In this document: piece after piece, positions 33,524-50,946 of the stretch
Position numbering within the stretch: position 1 is the stretch's first letter
How the letters are laid out: each line of letters begins with the position of its first letter
From: Promethearchaeota archaeon
Lineage (GTDB): Archaea > Asgardarchaeota > Hermodarchaeia > Hermodarchaeales > Hermodarchaeaceae
Assembly: GCA_048938385.1 (NCBI GenBank)
Contig: JBHLMG010000001.1
Location: 192,001 to 256,000 of the forward strand
Direction of reading: 5' to 3'
DNA length: 64,000 bases
Made by a program: the position numbers and the translations under genes
The notes under the pieces: generated by a model
The model's database searches: none
What the model saw: the letters and a program-made list of their open reading frames with translations, nothing else
What the model was told of the DNA's origin: nothing

Positions 33524-34795
33524 ATGTCTTATGTCAGCCATCTTCATTGCCCTAAGTGCGATACCCGCTATGACCTCGATGACAATCCCTTCACTTGCCA
33601 AACTCGTGATTGCAATGCACGGATTGATGTCCATTACGATTACACGCGTCTGAAAGAAGTTCTCTCAAAGAAAATTCTAGCCTCCCGTCCCTTGAGTGTT
33701 TGGAGTTATTTTGAACTACTTCCACTGATCAATCGGGATAAAATAATAAGCCTGGGGGAAGGAGGCACCCCTCTGCTCCAGAGTAAGCGCCTTGCTAAAG
33801 TTTTAGGCATCCGTGATTTGTATATTAAGGACGAAACACGAAATCCCACTTGGTCATTTAAAGATCGACCAATGACGGTGGGCGTTTCTAAGGCGAACGA
33901 ACAAGGTGCAAATACTCTAGCCTCAGCTAGTAGTGGTAACGCCGCTGCAGCCTTAGCTGCTTATTGCGCCAAAGCAGGGTTTGCCTGTTTCTGTTTTGTT
34001 CCGGACATCGCGCCCATGGGAAAAATCGCGCAGCTAATCCTATACGGGGCAACAGTCGTTCGCTTACGAGGATTGCACAAGGGGGACGATCCGACGGTCC
34101 AGTTGCTTCGTGAGGCTTGTTCTAGCTATGGATGGACACCTTGTCCCAGTTTTGGCCCCTTCAATCCCTATCAAGCTGAAGGCCCTAAAACCCTTGCTTA
34201 TGAAATCATTGAGCAATTTGACTGGAAATCTCCTGATGTTGCGTATGTGCAGGTCGGTGCAGGTGGACTCCTCGGAGGTCAATGGCGAGGGTTTACTGAT
34301 TTTTGGACCCTCGGACTAGTGAAGACACGACCACGAATGGTTGCAGTTCAGGCCACAGGATGTGCCCCTCTGGTTCAAGCCTTTCACACCAATCAAGACA
34401 TCTTCAACATCTTACCGTGTGCTTCTCCTCAAAGTGTTGCTGAAGGACTTTGTGATCCATTTCCTTGGGATGGTGATCTTGCTCTCACCGCAGTTCGAGA
34501 ATCTAAGGGAGTGGCCCTGGCAGTAAATGATGATGCTATATTGCATGCTCAGCAATTACTTGCTAAATATGAAGGAGTTTTTGCTGAACCTACGGGTGTA
34601 ACTGGTTTAGCAGGGCTAATTGATGCCCTTGAATCTGGCGAACAAGATCCTTCTGAAACTATCCTCGTCGAAGCAACGGGGGGTGGCTTGAAGGATCAAG
34701 ATGTCGTCATCGAACGCGTCGAAGCTCCCCCGGTCATCGACCCAGATTTATCCCAGCTCAAAGCTGTTATTCAAAGGCAAAAACACTCCAAGTGA
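33524..34795 (+). CDS. Threonine-synthase-like PLP enzyme (fold type II), substrate uncertain
   Basis: N-terminal Zn ribbon, GEGGTPL, NPTWSFKDR (PLP Lys), SSGN, EPTG, TGGGLK; several phosphohomoserine ligands are altered. Confidence 0.85.
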   Translation: MSYVSHLHCPKCDTRYDLDDNPFTCQTRDCNARIDVHYDYTRLKEVLSKKILASRPLSVWSYFELLPLINRDKIISLGEGGTPLLQSKRLAKVLGIRDLYIKDETRNPTWSFKDRPMTVGVSKANEQGANTLASASSGNAAAALAAYCAKAGFACFCFVPDIAPMGKIAQLILYGATVVRLRGLHKGDDPTVQLLREACSSYGWTPCPSFGPFNPYQAEGPKTLAYEIIEQFDWKSPDVAYVQVGAGGLLGGQWRGFTDFWTLGLVKTRPRMVAVQATGCAPLVQAFHTNQDIFNILPCASPQSVAEGLCDPFPWDGDLALTAVRESKGVALAVNDDAILHAQQLLAKYEGVFAEPTGVTGLAGLIDALESGEQDPSETILVEATGGGLKDQDVVIERVEAPPVIDPDLSQLKAVIQRQKHSK

Positions 34796-34859
34796 TGCGA
34801 TATAGAAACACAGTTAAACGACTCTGTCCCTGAAGCCTCCCAAAAAGGAGCGACTCTCT

Positions 34860-48526: not shown

Positions 48527-50452
48527 TCATTCCGGCAGTTCGATCCCCTGAGTAGTAAGATCGCGCACTACATCCTTAAGTCCCACACGCTCAAGGGTTT
48601 GCTTAGTTGGCAGCCCATCTCTTAACCGCCAACCTCGCTGTTCATAGTATTCATCCAGCATTTGGTCAAGTTCAACTACTTGGCCCTTTGACGGTCCCTC
48701 TGGGGCGGGTGTGTGGGTTAGTCGTCGTGGAAGCGCATCATCTTTTCGGCGAATCCCTTCTCGAACATTGAATCCGCGATTTAAGTTAACGATTCGCTCG
48801 CCAATTAATCGAAACTTGGCTTCTGTAAATTTTATTCCGACAGTCACATCAAAGGTCGCTACTACATCCTCGTAAAAGAGGACTGGGGGGATTAATGTTC
48901 CATACTTGCACACACCTAAAGATTCGACGACTGCACAAAAATCCTCGTTCTCCTTTACCATGACACCTTTATACTTCGGATTCAATCGGTCACCGATTTC
49001 AGGTAAATACGCTCTCCCATAACGAATACCTATCTCCTCATCAAACCCAACTTCATCCAGGACCGGGAAGGCATACAGATGGTCTGCACCCCGCGCTGCC
49101 GTCGCCGACGCTAAACCCATCGACTTTTGTGCACGAGGTTCTTGCCCTGCAATTTCTTGTTTCTTGCAGTGCATCACGAATTTCTCAGTTCCTCGACCAA
49201 TTTTTTGCGCGGCACGATAACTTCCTTCAGCCAGGATATCGCCGAACCCTTCACGCTTGGCAATCATGTGAATTAGTTTGATTATGGTTTTGTGGTTTCC
49301 CCAGCTCAAATCAATCCCACCAGTATCTTCAGCAGTAATTAATCCTTCATCCCAGGCTTCCATCGCCCAACTTATCGTAGCACCAGTTGAAATTGTGTCG
49401 AGTCCGTATAGATTCGAGATGTGATGTCCATACAATATTGATTCTAGGTTATCATTACCACAACGACTCCCTAGAGCTGCTTGGGATTCATATTCAGGGC
49501 TTCCACCACAATAGGCGTATGGACCAGTTTTGACGAGGGTGTATCTTCCACAGCGTTGTAAACAAGCGTAATCTGCCCTAGGCTTCACAAGGTACTGGTT
49601 CTTAATAGCTTCACCACTAATCTTTTGGTATTGAGCAAAAACTCCTGATCGCATGTTGTAACTAGGAAGTCGACCAATTTCTTGCATCAGTTCAACAAGA
49701 TTCGTCGTTCCGTACTTAGCCCGGCTCGCTGTAAAAGGACTATCCAACATTTTTTGGTGTAATTTTTCTATTACCTCAAGGTATCTGTCAGGTTTGGCTA
49801 TTGAAATATCTTGACTCCCACGGACAGCTACGGCTTTCAGATTCTTGCTCCCCATGACCGCCCCCAAGCCCGTTCTTGCTGCGGCACGATCATAATCGTT
49901 AATTATGGCTGCATAGCGAACGAGGTTCTCCCCAGCTTGACCAATGCATGAGACTCGAAGACCCGGATCACCTTGGTTTTCCTTAATTATCTCCTCTGTT
50001 TCGTTTGTATCTCGACCCCACAACTCCGTGGCATCTAACAGACGGGCAACACCGTTGTCAATGAATAAATACACAGGACTCCTTGCACGCCCTGTAACGA
50101 CGATAGCATCAAATCCAGCGAATTTTAATTCAGGTCCCCAATGCCCTGCTGAATGGGCTTCTCCAAAGATGCCTGTTAACGGGGATTTTGCGGCTACCAC
50201 ATAACGTGAAGCTTGGGGCCAAAGGGTTCCAGTAAAAGGTCCTGTTGCCCAAATCAGGACATTTTCGGGAGTGAGGGGATCTATTGAGGGTCCTACCTTG
50301 TCGTATAAAATTCTAGAAGCGAATCCTTGACCACCCAAGTAGGTAAGGGCGAACTCTCGGTCCAGTGGAATGGGCTTACAATGACCCTTTGTCATATCAA
50401 CATGTAATAGTTGTCCAGCATATCCACCAAGTTTTGTTTTCGACTTCGTCAT
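48527..50452 (-). CDS. Tungsten AOR/WOR family oxidoreductase, copy B
   Basis: KSPLTG, GAVMGSKNLKA, PEYES, YGLDTIS, RGADHL. The Fe-S motif reads DYACLQRC. Confidence 0.95.
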   Translation of the reverse strand: MTKSKTKLGGYAGQLLHVDMTKGHCKPIPLDREFALTYLGGQGFASRILYDKVGPSIDPLTPENVLIWATGPFTGTLWPQASRYVVAAKSPLTGIFGEAHSAGHWGPELKFAGFDAIVVTGRARSPVYLFIDNGVARLLDATELWGRDTNETEEIIKENQGDPGLRVSCIGQAGENLVRYAAIINDYDRAAARTGLGAVMGSKNLKAVAVRGSQDISIAKPDRYLEVIEKLHQKMLDSPFTASRAKYGTTNLVELMQEIGRLPSYNMRSGVFAQYQKISGEAIKNQYLVKPRADYACLQRCGRYTLVKTGPYAYCGGSPEYESQAALGSRCGNDNLESILYGHHISNLYGLDTISTGATISWAMEAWDEGLITAEDTGGIDLSWGNHKTIIKLIHMIAKREGFGDILAEGSYRAAQKIGRGTEKFVMHCKKQEIAGQEPRAQKSMGLASATAARGADHLYAFPVLDEVGFDEEIGIRYGRAYLPEIGDRLNPKYKGVMVKENEDFCAVVESLGVCKYGTLIPPVLFYEDVVATFDVTVGIKFTEAKFRLIGERIVNLNRGFNVREGIRRKDDALPRRLTHTPAPEGPSKGQVVELDQMLDEYYEQRGWRLRDGLPTKQTLERVGLKDVVRDLTTQGIELPE

Positions 50453-50946
50453 TGTTCGCCCTCCAGAGTTTTTTCTTCAACTCGTAACTCATCTAGTGTA
50501 TCTTTACACTCAGCTCGAATTACATTTTGTTGCTTGAGGGCTGCTAACTCTTCCTCGGTAAGGATTCGAAGCGTATTCACAGGGCAATACTTTGTACAAA
50601 AACCACAGGTCACACATTTGATGGCTTTTTGACTATCAGGATGAAGGAAAATAGCCCCAAATGGGCATGCTTCAACACAACTGCCGCAACCTCGACACTT
50701 TTTCGAATTAACCATGACAATTCCTTGGCGATTACGGTAAAGCGCCTCCTCAGGGCAGGCTTCAATACACCATGCCTGGTCACAGTTACGACAAGCTACT
50801 ACAACATCTAACCCCGGATTAACGCGACGAACACGGTTCCGTGCTTTTTTAGGGTTGAGTGTTTTTTCCCAATGAAAACTGCAAATCGCTTCACATACGC
50901 GGCAGCCCACGCATACCAATGGATCTGCGTATAAGAACTTCCTCAA
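50449..50946 (-). CDS. Four-cluster 4Fe-4S subunit of AOR copy B
   Basis: Four Cys clusters; stop overlaps the AOR start (ATGA). Confidence 0.92.
   Translation of the reverse strand: MRKFLYADPLVCVGCRVCEAICSFHWEKTLNPKKARNRVRRVNPGLDVVVACRNCDQAWCIEACPEEALYRNRQGIVMVNSKKCRGCGSCVEACPFGAIFLHPDSQKAIKCVTCGFCTKYCPVNTLRILTEEELAALKQQNVIRAECKDTLDELRVEEKTLEGEQ

Follow-up and report, generated by a model that had tools for sequence, protein, structure and literature searches.

A Promethearchaeota gene cluster as the probable core of a reductive purine/urate fermentation, with AOR-family enzymes as candidate redox parts

The window, a 64,000-nucleotide stretch of a Promethearchaeota contig, contains at positions 33,524 to 50,946 a group of genes that, in our judgement, probably encodes the central steps of a reductive (2,8-dioxopurine-type), oxygen-independent purine/urate fermentation in this archaeon, with enzymes of the AOR family as integral redox parts. 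The reductive purine/urate pathway was worked out in 2025 in E. coli, C. difficile and C. sporogenes, and a preliminary description of the window had proposed that this archaeon runs an analogous route with different parts. That interpretation came through in part: the in-silico tests suggested along with it all spoke in its favour, while several of its substitution claims and family labels had to be softened. Family calls were made using Pfam domains and NCBIfam models with curated cut-offs, and all of the gene families named before were recovered in their places, as were the interspersed glmS, tatD, GGGPS and GTPase genes, which are passengers outside the pathway (Table 1).

Table 1. Genes at positions 33,524 to 50,946 of the window, with the short names used in the text.
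Feature	Coordinates	Strand	Domains or remarks
ThrC-like PLP enzyme (ThrCl)	33524..34795	+	PALP domain; candidate lyase
glmS	34860-36686		interspersed gene
TatD	36715-37551		interspersed gene
Carbamoyltransferase A (CTaseA)	37578..38597	+	OTCace_N + OTCace domains (Pfam)
Carbamoyltransferase B (CTaseB)	38641..39714	-	OTCace domains (Pfam)
AmhB, TRZ/ATZ, MtaD/DadD-type amidohydrolase	39748..41148	-	Amidohydro_1 domain
MoaD/SAMP-like small protein 1	41229..41543	+	ThiS domain + TIGR01687 MoaD family
SsnA-like amidohydrolase (SsnAl)	41540..42886	-	best NCBIfam match SsnA
Polyferredoxin 1 (pFd1, AorA-like)	42978..43475	+	multiple 4Fe-4S dicluster domains
AOR1, AOR-family pterin enzyme	43480..45417	+	AFOR_N + AFOR_C domains
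PreAl, UacX-type reductase	45417..46604	+	DHO_dh barrel + two Fer4 (4Fe-4S) motifs
MoaD/SAMP-like small protein 2	46620..46907	+	ThiS domain + TIGR01687
GGGPS	46921-47691		interspersed gene
Small GTPase	47738-48415		interspersed gene
AOR2, AOR-family pterin enzyme	48527..50452	-	AFOR_N + AFOR_C domains
Polyferredoxin 2 (pFd2)	50449..50946	-	multiple 4Fe-4S domains

The grouping of these genes is more than chance, because they are found together again, in differing orders, in archaeal phyla far removed from this one, counting no fewer than six distant lineages. Co-conservation, which the preliminary description had listed as a test, was thus found well beyond close relatives. The Hecatella cluster combines ThrCl, PreT/PreA, carbamate kinase, a D-hydantoinase, CTaseA, CTaseB, SsnAl, pFd2 and AOR2, and that of the Desulfurococcales holds adenine deaminase, AmhB, CTaseA, CTaseB, carbamate kinase, SsnAl, PreAl, a PALP protein, ThrCl and a true YgeY, which passes its model (349.8 against a cut-off of 321). 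The Caldarchaeum cluster contains a nucleoside-binding protein, adenine deaminase, a luciferase-like reductase, SsnAl and a three-subunit Xdh, and the cluster also includes CTaseA, carbamate kinase, ThrCl, a CysK-like protein and CTaseB; the Hadarchaeota cluster contains a cyclic amidohydrolase, SsnAl and PreAl. Adenine deaminase, Xdh, true YgeY and the nucleoside-binding protein give the gene set a purine context in these other lineages.

It had been stated that the window lacks both a hydantoinase (HyuA) and a carbamate kinase, which is correct, and a search of the genome located both: the hydantoinase at C12:12436-13827, passing the dihydropyrimidinase/D-hydantoinase model (496.8 > 393), and carbamate kinase at C37:43373-44314 (377 > 358). 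Adenine deaminase is likewise encoded outside the window. Pathway genes of this genome are spread over four or more contigs, and the locus itself is broken up by housekeeping genes. An Xdh-family gene was not found in the genome, which does not prove its absence because the assembly is 89.8% complete. Across a sample of 151 Asgard genomes, SsnAl was present in 46 and AOR2 in 40, and 38 of these 40 also carry SsnAl; ThrCl occurs together with SsnAl in 43 and CTaseB together with SsnAl in 40 of the 151. When carriers of SsnAl or AOR2 were tested for Xdh (scored as PF02738), it was detected in none of 30 AOR2-positive genomes and in six of eight that are SsnAl-positive and AOR2-negative.

SsnAl is a candidate for the hydrolase that opens the ring of the reduced dioxopurine. 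Over its full length it shares 27.7% identity with E. coli SsnA, and in our tree it belongs to an archaeal clade whose sister group (SH-like 98) is true SsnA, represented by six proteins that each score above the cut-off of the SsnA equivalog model. The earlier label of an SsnA orthologue is too strong for a protein in such a sister clade, scoring 381.7 bits against the NCBIfam SsnA cut-off of 444. Nine of 18 SsnA-specific conserved positions are present in SsnAl and the other nine, the HH.S motif among them, are absent; given these losses and the sub-cut-off score, the substrate of SsnAl could therefore differ from that of SsnA. Among 68 more distant loci, a UacX-type reductase lies within 10 kb of SsnAl in 29 and a cyclic amidohydrolase accompanies it in about 42. 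The second amidohydrolase, AmhB, is best matched by the 5'-deoxyadenosine deaminase model (423 bits, cut-off 522) and is the sole protein of its type found in the genome apart from SsnAl. Its gene ends 34 bp ahead of CTaseB in the same orientation, and orthologues adjoin SsnAl in three loci (L038, L052 and L063). AmhB may be a purine deaminase that supplies the pathway, or else the housekeeping MTA/5'-deoxyadenosine deaminase.

CTaseA is a candidate ureido-group phosphorolase that would release carbamoyl phosphate, and CTaseB a second candidate for this type of reaction. Both had been called YgeW-like, and they do form one clade with YgeW (97/100) from which OTC and ATC are excluded; their scores of 143-167 bits against the YgeW models fall far under the cut-offs of 453 and 500, so the label overstates membership. 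The closest models by score are AOTC and OTC, with CTaseA under every NCBIfam cut-off and CTaseB a marginal match to AOTC (292.8 against 288). In the tree, CTaseA orthologues form a clade with 99/96 support, and CTaseB orthologues form one (98/97) whose sister group unites YgeW with an OTCase from a bacterial SsnA cluster. Neither protein has the look of an arginine-synthesis enzyme of the AOTC or SOTC type, an outcome that would have spoken against the proposed pathway: a canonical OTC is encoded elsewhere in the genome, at C5, CTaseB has Ser and Glu aligned to AOTC positions 92 and 302, and the distribution of the carbamoyltransferases tracks SsnAl, which is present in 40 of the 43 CTaseB-positive Asgard genomes, and not arginine synthesis. 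Carbamate kinase adjoins CTaseA in Caldarchaeum and Desulfurococcales. The idea that two transcarbamylases replace YgeW and YgeY had to be given up as a clean swap, because the Desulfurococcales cluster holds both of them together with true YgeY.

ThrCl passes a threonine synthase model (NF006050, 336.8 > 303), and its ThrC phosphate-site motifs are altered from STGNT to SSGNA, from NPYR to NPYQ and from PVGNAGN to QVGAGGL. The loss of the phosphate ligands is common to all orthologues compared, from eight lineages, and thrB was not found in the genome. Hecatella, Caldarchaeum, Desulfurococcales, Nitrososphaeria and Hadarchaeota all have ThrCl orthologues in their clusters. A bona fide bacterial SsnA cluster encodes a PALP counterpart with 37-41% identity to ThrCl, and no YgeX-like gene was found in the stretch of that cluster that was read, so the suggested use of a ThrC-fold enzyme for YgeX is met with in bacteria as well. 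From these features, ThrCl is a candidate 2,3-diaminopropionate or ureido-alanine lyase standing in for YgeX.

PreAl has no FAD/NAD domain and shares 42.7% identity over its full length with the product of a DHO_dh/Fer4 gene adjoining bona fide bacterial ssnA; both have a deletion of the loop that bears the catalytic Cys in PreA and PyrD. It directly adjoins SsnAl in Hadarchaeota and is a candidate ferredoxin-linked dioxopurine reductase of the UacX type. The expected ferredoxin-type FMN reductase in place of YgfK is hence in evidence, but the swap is not new because a UacX-type ferredoxin-linked reductase has already been described from C. difficile (PMC12507026). Judged from spacing, PreAl belongs to a transcription unit with pFd1 and AOR1 that is closed by the gene for MoaD/SAMP-like protein 2: pFd1 ends 4 bp ahead of AOR1, and the PreAl start overlaps the AOR1 stop (TAATG). 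The order pFd1-AOR1-PreAl is kept in L004, L023 and L089, and a MoaD-like gene was found again in the AOR clusters of L004, L019, L038 and L089. MoaD/SAMP-like protein 1 probably helps to mature the pterin cofactor of the AORs, and the two polyferredoxins are predicted to act as the electron wire of AOR1 (pFd1) and as the partner of AOR2 (pFd2).

AOR1 (support 99), AOR2 (support 100) and AOR3, a third AOR of this genome encoded outside the window on contig C29, represent three orthologous groups inside one clade (support 98). These groups are clustered with pathway genes in six or more lineages; in L004, L019, L023 and L089 all three are found together with PreAl, and SsnAl is on the same stretch in three of these four. 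AOR2 is the AOR with the tightest pathway linkage. Its orthologues (62-67% identity) adjoin SsnAl in L002, L004 and L023, lie within about 6-8 kb of it in L019 and L038, and adjoin ThrCl and CTaseB in L086, L089 and L090, and AOR2-pFd2 adjoins ThrCl-CTaseB even where SsnAl is located elsewhere in the genome. pFd2 shares 4 bp with the start of AOR2, and its orthologue adjoins AOR2 in all loci checked but L089, where a pFd1-like polyferredoxin is found instead. The first 4Fe-4S cysteine (Pf Cys288) is Asp in AOR2 and likewise in 9 of 12 orthologues.

The complementary Asgard distribution and the gene positions support the earlier claim that AOR replaces Xdh, whereas the presence of both AOR2 and Xdh in Hecatella and several Hadarchaeota speaks against it. 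The latter would also suit a different view, which we consider unlikely, namely that the locus does serve purine catabolism but that its AORs are ordinary aldehyde:ferredoxin oxidoreductases inactive on purines, which pass low-potential electrons through polyferredoxin to PreAl in the operon place of AorC. Among solved structures, true AORs come nearest to AOR1 (443-457 bits). Both AOR1 and AOR2 have their strongest similarity to genuine aldehyde oxidoreductases (about 450-470 bits) and keep the Glu313 and His448 positions, as would equally be expected of enzymes that oxidise ordinary aldehydes. Moreover, the order pFd1-AOR1-PreAl-MoaD with its TAATG overlap mirrors the aorA-aorB-aorC-aorE layout of the operon for Aromatoleum AorABC, and in C. 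difficile the reduction of yanthine is reported to depend on ferredoxin and to be thermodynamically demanding (PMC12507026). However, the known pathway yields no aldehyde at any step, and PreAl occurs without AOR1 orthologues in Hadarchaeota, Desulfurococcales and one Xdh-positive, AOR2-negative Asgard genome. AOR2 in turn is tied to SsnAl, ThrCl and CTaseB and not to PreAl, and C6 dehydroxylation would be left without a candidate in Xdh-less genomes.

Reductive uracil/thymine catabolism is an improbable function of the locus. PreAl, a dihydropyrimidine-dehydrogenase homologue, would then reduce the pyrimidine, a dihydropyrimidinase, whose model the cyclic amidohydrolase of this genome passes, would open the ring, a carbamoyltransferase would phosphorolyse N-carbamoyl-beta-alanine with ATP formed via carbamate kinase, and an AOR would oxidise malonate semialdehyde and return the electrons to PreAl. 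Such a scheme offers AOR a real aldehyde substrate and would close the redox balance, but it leaves SsnAl, ThrCl and the second transcarbamylase without a role, and an aminotransferase is absent from all clusters examined. Furthermore, PreAl is without the catalytic-Cys loop found in true PreA and instead resembles the SsnA-associated reductase, and the clusters of other lineages contain the purine markers adenine deaminase, Xdh and true YgeY. That the genes are unrelated housekeeping neighbours (threonine synthase, AOTC-type arginine enzymes, an MTA deaminase and generic AORs), as the model matches of ThrCl and, marginally, CTaseB and the interspersed glmS, tatD, GGGPS and GTPase genes might suggest, is most improbable and already contradicted by the synteny across at least six lineages and the co-occurrence within Asgard, and is at odds with the lost phosphate site of ThrCl, the failure to find thrB in this genome, the canonical OTC encoded elsewhere and the altered AOTC positions.

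In the purine/urate route that we favour, purine bases would be brought to the dioxopurine level, with adenine deaminase and perhaps also AmhB feeding in, before PreAl would reduce the ring as a UacX-type, ferredoxin-type FMN/Fe-S enzyme. SsnAl would open the six-membered ring and the hydantoinase on contig C12 the five-membered ring to give 2,3-diureidopropionate, from which CTaseA and CTaseB would strip the ureido groups by phosphorolysis, allowing carbamate kinase (contig C37) to convert carbamoyl phosphate to ATP. ThrCl would finally turn the C3 diamine into pyruvate plus ammonia, possibly helped by another PLP enzyme, CysK-like or dehydratase-like, whose gene lies elsewhere. The AOR/polyferredoxin modules (AOR1, AOR2 and AOR3) and the MoaD-like maturation proteins would be integral redox parts, the AORs most likely catalysing hydroxylation and dehydroxylation at purine ring carbons, as Xdh-family enzymes do in bacteria and other archaea, and exchanging electrons with PreAl via the polyferredoxins. 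Gene content, placement in families, synteny across lineages and co-occurrence within Asgard are observed, and within this frame we infer all substrates, which way the electrons flow, the metal (tungsten versus molybdenum) and the role of the AORs. AOR-type genes in the place of Xdh point to a candidate new role for the AOR family: gut bacteria use a molybdenum xanthine dehydrogenase, whereas the Asgard locus has AOR-type (tungsten-family) enzymes in that place.

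Gene calls in the window, drawn from an ORF listing together with Pfam and NCBIfam scans, recovered in place every gene named in the preliminary description, which had proposed that the locus is a tungsten-based counterpart, assembled from different parts, of the bacterial xdh-ygfK-ssnA-hyuA-ygeW-ygeX-ygeY pathway for reductive purine or urate catabolism (Table). The source genome is an Asgard assembly of 2.48 Mb that is 89.8% complete. The stop codon of AOR1, a gene of the aldehyde oxidoreductase (AOR) family, overlaps the start of the reductase gene PreAl in the sequence TAATG, and the stop of polyferredoxin 2 overlaps the start of AOR2 by 4 bp. 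Scattered among the pathway genes are glmS, TatD, GGGPS and a small GTPase, which we set aside as passengers together with a 211-aa ORF upstream of the ThrC-like gene ThrCl, because the synteny of all of these is limited to the closest relatives (loci L006-L017). The GTPase is Ras/Arf-like, lies between both AOR modules and keeps its synteny in close relatives only. Upstream of the locus lies an operon, unrelated to the finding, that encodes a MoxR AAA ATPase, a DUF58/VWA protein, a DUF4350 protein and a 1169-aa transglutaminase-like protein. A scan for bacterial-type promoters and terminators, of a type ill-suited to archaea, gave counts equal to chance.

Table. Coordinates of the locus genes, of neighbouring features in the window and of further genes on other contigs (C5, C29, C33, C37) of the same genome (G000)
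Feature	Sequence	Position	Strand
Upstream MoxR/DUF58/DUF4350/transglutaminase-like operon	window	24150-32646	-
ThrCl, ThrC-like PLP enzyme	window	33524-34795	+
CTaseA, carbamoyltransferase A	window	37578-38597	+
CTaseB, carbamoyltransferase B	window	38641-39714	-
AmhB, MtaD/DadD-type amidohydrolase	window	39748-41148	-
MoaD-like 1	window	41229-41543	+
SsnAl, SsnA-like amidohydrolase	window	41540-42886	-
Polyferredoxin 1, AOR1, PreAl (DHO_dh/2x4Fe-4S reductase), MoaD-like 2	window	42978-46907	+
Small Ras/Arf-like GTPase	window	47738-48415	
AOR2 and polyferredoxin 2	window	48527-50946	-
Canonical OTC-like gene	C5	18231-19127	
Second ThrC-like gene	C29 (L095)	485-1966	-
AOR paralogue and GltD/PreT-like flavoprotein	C33	29169-32512	
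Carbamate kinase and Ser/Thr-dehydratase-like PLP enzyme	C37 (L092)	42281-44314	

The amidohydrolase SsnAl had been described as an orthologue of SsnA. SsnA is indeed its top-scoring family (the runner-up family reached 293 bits), but its scores lie below both curated cut-offs (381.7 against 444 for NF005540 and 355.9 against 455.5 for TIGR03314), and its identity to E. coli SsnA is 27.7%. We built a FastTree phylogeny from 150 representatives of an exhaustive search plus references, in which the archaeal SsnAl clade is the sister (SH-like support 98) of a clade of 104 members, E. coli SsnA among them, and hence stands outside rather than inside it; all six sampled members of the latter pass the SsnA equivalog model NF005540. 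AmhB, guanine deaminase and other TRZ/ATZ paralogues fall outside both clades. Of 18 positions that mark SsnA, being conserved there and uncommon in the outgroup, the SsnAl clade shares 9, and it does not share the HH.S motif. The term orthologue overstates this relationship, SsnAl being closest to SsnA by score and its sister in the tree. Among 68 more distant loci, PreAl lies within 10 kb of SsnAl in 29, being its immediate neighbour in Hadarchaeota, and a cyclic amidohydrolase is found near SsnAl in about 42. Several Hadarchaeota loci (L028, L043, L046 and others; about 12.4-16 kb) carry, directly after SsnAl-PreAl, a second, more distant SsnA paralogue (34-36% identity) and a PreA/PreT or YgfK-like NAD(P)H-type reductase, which may constitute a further module that reduces and opens the ring of a different base. 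An archaeal-type pair of cyclic amidohydrolase and SsnA-like genes also occurs at L057 (DATKOK010000143.1), a contig binned as a Methylomirabilota bacterium, reflecting either horizontal transfer or misbinning.

PreAl (395 aa) consists of a DHO_dh FMN barrel and two Fer4 (4Fe-4S) motifs, and no PreT/GltD-like FAD/NAD partner is encoded nearby. The catalytic-Cys loop SCPxG of PreA and PyrD is deleted in PreAl and in all of its orthologues. UacX-type reductases are known from C. difficile (PMC12507026). For the comparison with UacX we used, in place of the C. difficile protein (Q181U4), the reductase whose gene adjoins that of SsnA in L098, a genuine bacterial SsnA cluster marked by an SsnA of 553 bits, a YgeY with 59% identity to that of E. 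coli and a sigma-54 regulator. The two reductases share the loop deletion and are 42.7% identical over 389 aa, and PreAl is therefore of the UacX type. The proposal that a ferredoxin-type FMN reductase takes the place of the NAD(P)H-linked YgfK agrees with this identity and with the missing FAD/NAD domain. We considered AOR1 as the obligatory electron donor of PreAl and rejected it, as PreAl is found in Hadarchaeota and Desulfurococcales with no accompanying orthologue of AOR1. Hecatella has PreT/PreA in place of PreAl and no AOR1 orthologue, and one Xdh-positive, AOR2-negative Asgard genome contains PreAl. A complex prediction for PreAl with polyferredoxin 1 gave a score of 0.00, which is evidence neither way.

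Against the YgeW models NF005538 and TIGR03316 (cut-offs 453 and 500), CTaseA scored 167 and 155 and CTaseB 149 and 143, and the highest model and structure scores of both were to acetylornithine-type (AOTC) and ornithine (OTC) transcarbamylases. In an IQ-TREE phylogeny, built without AOTC, SOTC or PTC references, CTaseA and CTaseB form two orthologous clades within a 22-row clade (support 97/100) that also holds E. coli YgeW and the short OTCase of L098, which is 38-40% identical to both; the OTC of the source genome, E. coli ArgI and the ATCases lie outside. Their description as YgeW-like therefore holds for the grouping with YgeW apart from OTC and ATC, although they remain far under the YgeW cut-offs. 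A residue comparison of CTaseB with AOTC shows Ser and Glu at the positions aligned with Glu92 and Lys302, which are specificity residues in Xanthomonas AOTC. A canonical OTC-like gene is present on contig C5, and in our Asgard sample CTaseB orthologues occur only in families with SsnAl, 40 of 43 CTaseB genomes also having SsnAl. The changed residues, the separate OTC and the distribution following that of SsnAl argue that these transcarbamylases are not arginine-synthesis enzymes.

ThrCl passes the threonine synthase models TIGR00260 and NF006050 and aligns to solved threonine synthases, while its phosphate-site motifs are changed in all orthologues (STGNT to SSGNA, NSxNPxR to PSFGPFNPYQ and PVGNAGN to QVGAGGL). 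No homoserine kinase above the model cut-off was found in the genome. No window protein had a BLASTP match to E. coli YgeX (E <= 1e-3), and tblastn gave no YgeX match in the genome. The bacterial cluster L098 contains a ThrC-like PALP gene whose identity to ThrCl is 37-41%, as against 23% to YgeX, and the predicted exchange of a ThrC-like enzyme for YgeX is, on this basis, not confined to archaea; L098 also has a CysK-like PALP gene and a hydantoinase-like gene. A second ThrC-like gene of the source genome, on C29 outside the window (493 aa), passes NF006050 and has SFIDR in place of the PLP-binding motif SFKDR; its catalytic lysine thus appears to be replaced by Ile. On C37, the carbamate kinase gene is divergently paired with that of a Ser/Thr-dehydratase-like PLP enzyme (433.5 bits to the threo-3-hydroxyaspartate ammonia-lyase model, cut-off 452), which is possibly a diaminopropionate-type lyase of the same pathway. 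Besides this carbamate kinase, a search of the genome for the functions missing from the window identified a D-hydantoinase on C12 as the HyuA candidate. An adenine deaminase is encoded on C43, and a CysK-like enzyme on C22 is 60% identical to a gene of the Caldarchaeum cluster.

We gathered 80 archaeal loci from the SsnAl homologue alignment and mapped all reference proteins onto them. The close relatives L006-L017 show full synteny with the window, passengers included, while distant lineages keep the pathway genes only, in changed order; the gene set is thus conserved well beyond the immediate relatives. The Hecatella cluster comprises ThrCl, PreT/PreA, carbamate kinase, D-hydantoinase, CTaseA, CTaseB, SsnAl, polyferredoxin 2 and AOR2, and that of Hadarchaeota a cyclic amidohydrolase, SsnAl and PreAl, with XdhC and MocA-like maturation genes nearby in one locus. 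All three AOR/polyferredoxin modules occur with PreAl and SsnAl in a locus on a JGI contig and in a Baldrarchaeota locus, and two of them in a Heimdall locus, again with PreAl and SsnAl; a Nitrososphaeria-like locus combines PreAl, ThrCl and the two transcarbamylases with all three AOR modules, SsnAl being on another contig. The Desulfurococcales cluster holds adenine deaminase, AmhB, CTaseA, CTaseB, carbamate kinase, SsnAl, PreAl, PALP and ThrCl, together with a YgeY scoring above the cut-off of its equivalog model. The Caldarchaeum cluster encodes a nucleoside-binding protein, adenine deaminase, a luciferase-like reductase (the variant reported for Chloroflexota), SsnAl, the FAD, Fe-S and Mo subunits of a xanthine dehydrogenase (Xdh), CTaseA, carbamate kinase, ThrCl, a CysK-like enzyme and CTaseB. 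Judged from these gene contexts, purines are by far the most likely substrate.

The claim that tungsten AORs replace Xdh-type enzymes was examined in 151 Asgard genomes, for which we give counts rather than a test because relatedness makes genomes non-independent. Of these genomes, 46 have SsnAl and 40 have AOR2 (38 with both, 8 with SsnAl alone, 2 with AOR2 alone), and ThrCl and CTaseB track the same families. Xdh (PF02738) is found in none of 30 AOR2-positive genomes from 4 families and in 6 of 8 SsnAl-positive, AOR2-negative genomes from 3 families, in one case directly beside SsnAl. For the source genome, neither PF02738 (E <= 0.01; a provisional absence at 89.8% completeness) nor tblastn with E. 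coli or Caldarchaeum Xdh subunits gave a match. As the genomes compared are MAGs, gene absences in them are provisional. The idea that AOR2 and Xdh strictly exclude each other at genome level throughout the archaea was rejected, as 7 of 50 SsnAl-positive genomes from many phyla have both. The complementarity that would fit replacement is clean within the Asgard genomes alone; in Hecatella and several Hadarchaeota, AOR2 and Xdh occur together.

AOR1 and AOR2 contain both AFOR domains (PF02730 and PF01314) and are closest to genuine AORs, and a third AOR/polyferredoxin pair (AOR3) lies on C29. A quick-search tree of all AORs from the compared loci and the source genome places AOR1, AOR2 and AOR3 as three orthologous groups in one clade (support 98), apart from the five other AORs of this genome. 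Of these groups, AOR2 has the widest distribution; its neighbour is SsnAl in three loci (L002, L004 and L023), and it adjoins ThrCl and CTaseB in Hadarchaeota that have SsnAl elsewhere in the genome. The whole clade has RGADH, as against the canonical RGGCH, beside the catalytic His, and 9 of 12 AOR2 orthologues (window 48527-50452; L004, L006, L023, L038, L086-L089) have Asp for the first [4Fe-4S] cysteine, Cys288 of P. furiosus AOR. AOR1, AOR2 and AOR3 all retain the Glu313 and His448 positions, and these canonical catalytic residues, like the aorABC-like operon layout, suit the main rival explanation, by which the AORs only feed electrons into the pathway. That reading offers no source of aldehyde and leaves C6 dehydroxylation without an enzyme. 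We searched for the tungstate-binding protein WtpA and found no match. Contig C33 carries an AOR paralogue from outside the clade and, after it, a GltD/PreT-like flavoprotein that is 34-37% identical to YgfT and PreT, a layout nearer the AorB-AorC type.

We consider it possible, if somewhat short of probable, that AOR1, AOR2 and AOR3 act directly on the purine ring as position-specific hydroxylases and a dehydroxylase, with AOR2 as the counterpart of XdhD taking over the role of the Mo/Se Xdh family. AOR2 would then carry out the urate/2,8-dioxopurine step; in genomes that wholly lack Xdh, AOR1 and AOR3 would stand in for the remaining purine hydroxylases. Electrons from C2 and C8 hydroxylation could pass through the polyferredoxins to C6 dehydroxylation and to the UacX-type reductase, and this reuse would make the conversion of hypoxanthine to diureidopropionate internally redox-balanced. 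With two transcarbamylases, as many as two ATP might be gained from each purine. The transcarbamylase pair suggests a variant conserving more energy than the bacterial pathway. Evidence for the locus is comparative throughout, and the roles of the enzymes as well as the metal are predictions.

Until now, descriptions of the dioxopurine route for the anaerobic breakdown of purines have been limited to bacteria. Archaea, tungsten, AOR and ThrC-like enzymes are unmentioned in the 2025 papers (PMC12507026; bioRxiv 10.1101/2025.04.24.650524), and our literature search found no description of an archaeal SsnA/AOR purine pathway. Since the gene set extends to Asgard archaea, Hadarchaeota, Bathyarchaeia, Caldarchaeales, Desulfurococcales and other uncultured archaea, fermentation of purines from nucleic-acid debris may be a common source of ATP and nitrogen for sediment archaea, which would bear on Asgard physiology and cultivation. 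If the AORs act on purines, a new class of reaction would be added to those of tungsten/molybdenum AORs, and the displacement of one family of pterin enzymes by another would be clearly exemplified.

Among characterised proteins, the best-scoring solved structure for CTaseB is AOTC of Xanthomonas campestris (3KZC, about 240 bits), and CTaseB keeps the STRT-like, HPxQ and HCLP carbamoyl-phosphate motifs; it differs by the Ser/Glu pair, and the transcarbamylase genes sit and co-distribute with SsnAl, carbamate kinase and PLP enzymes, with the genome's own OTC elsewhere. The locus AORs share the AFOR_N and AFOR_C fold with AorABC of Aromatoleum aromaticum (8C0Z) and Pyrococcus furiosus AOR (1AOR) at 386-448 bits, along with the Glu313 and His448 positions and three of four cluster cysteines, and share with AorABC a polyferredoxin gene upstream of AOR and a MoaD-like gene in the operon. 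In contrast to AorABC, the third operon gene encodes the UacX-type FMN/Fe-S reductase and not a FAD/NAD subunit; unlike both known enzymes, the locus AORs form their own clade with RGADH for RGGCH and, in most AOR2, Asp for Cys288, and their neighbours and phyletic partners are purine-catabolic rather than of amino-acid or aromatic-aldehyde metabolism. The class II benzoyl-CoA reductase BamB (4Z3W), an AOR-family pterin enzyme acting on an aromatic ring, is a precedent for non-aldehyde substrates, but it is distant (about 251-257 bits), has other partner subunits and implies no CoA-ester chemistry here.

The nearest known system is the bacterial reductive urate/2,8-dioxopurine cluster, which in E. 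coli comprises xdhD-ygfM, ygfK, ssnA, hyuA, ygeW, yqeA and ygeY together with ygeX and has a C. difficile variant with UacX and UacY (PMC12507026; bioRxiv 10.1101/2025.04.24.650524). Unlike it, the archaeal system has an SsnAl from a sister clade scoring under the family cut-off, two carbamoyltransferases for YgeW and YgeY, a ThrC-fold enzyme for YgeX (a swap also made in L098), and three AOR-family enzymes with polyferredoxins where no Xdh-family enzyme was found in the genome, its genes being spread over several contigs. Because SsnAl and the transcarbamylases fall under their cut-offs, YgeX (and here also YgeY) is replaced and Xdh is absent, the locus appears to resemble the bacterial cluster without being a simple member of it. 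Common to both are an SsnA-type amidohydrolase paired with a ferredoxin (UacX)-type DHO_dh-fold FMN/Fe-S reductase, a cyclic amidohydrolase/hydantoinase, a YgeW-clade carbamoyltransferase, a carbamate kinase, a fold-type-II PLP enzyme and, in the relatives, the purine context of adenine deaminase, Xdh and YgeY.
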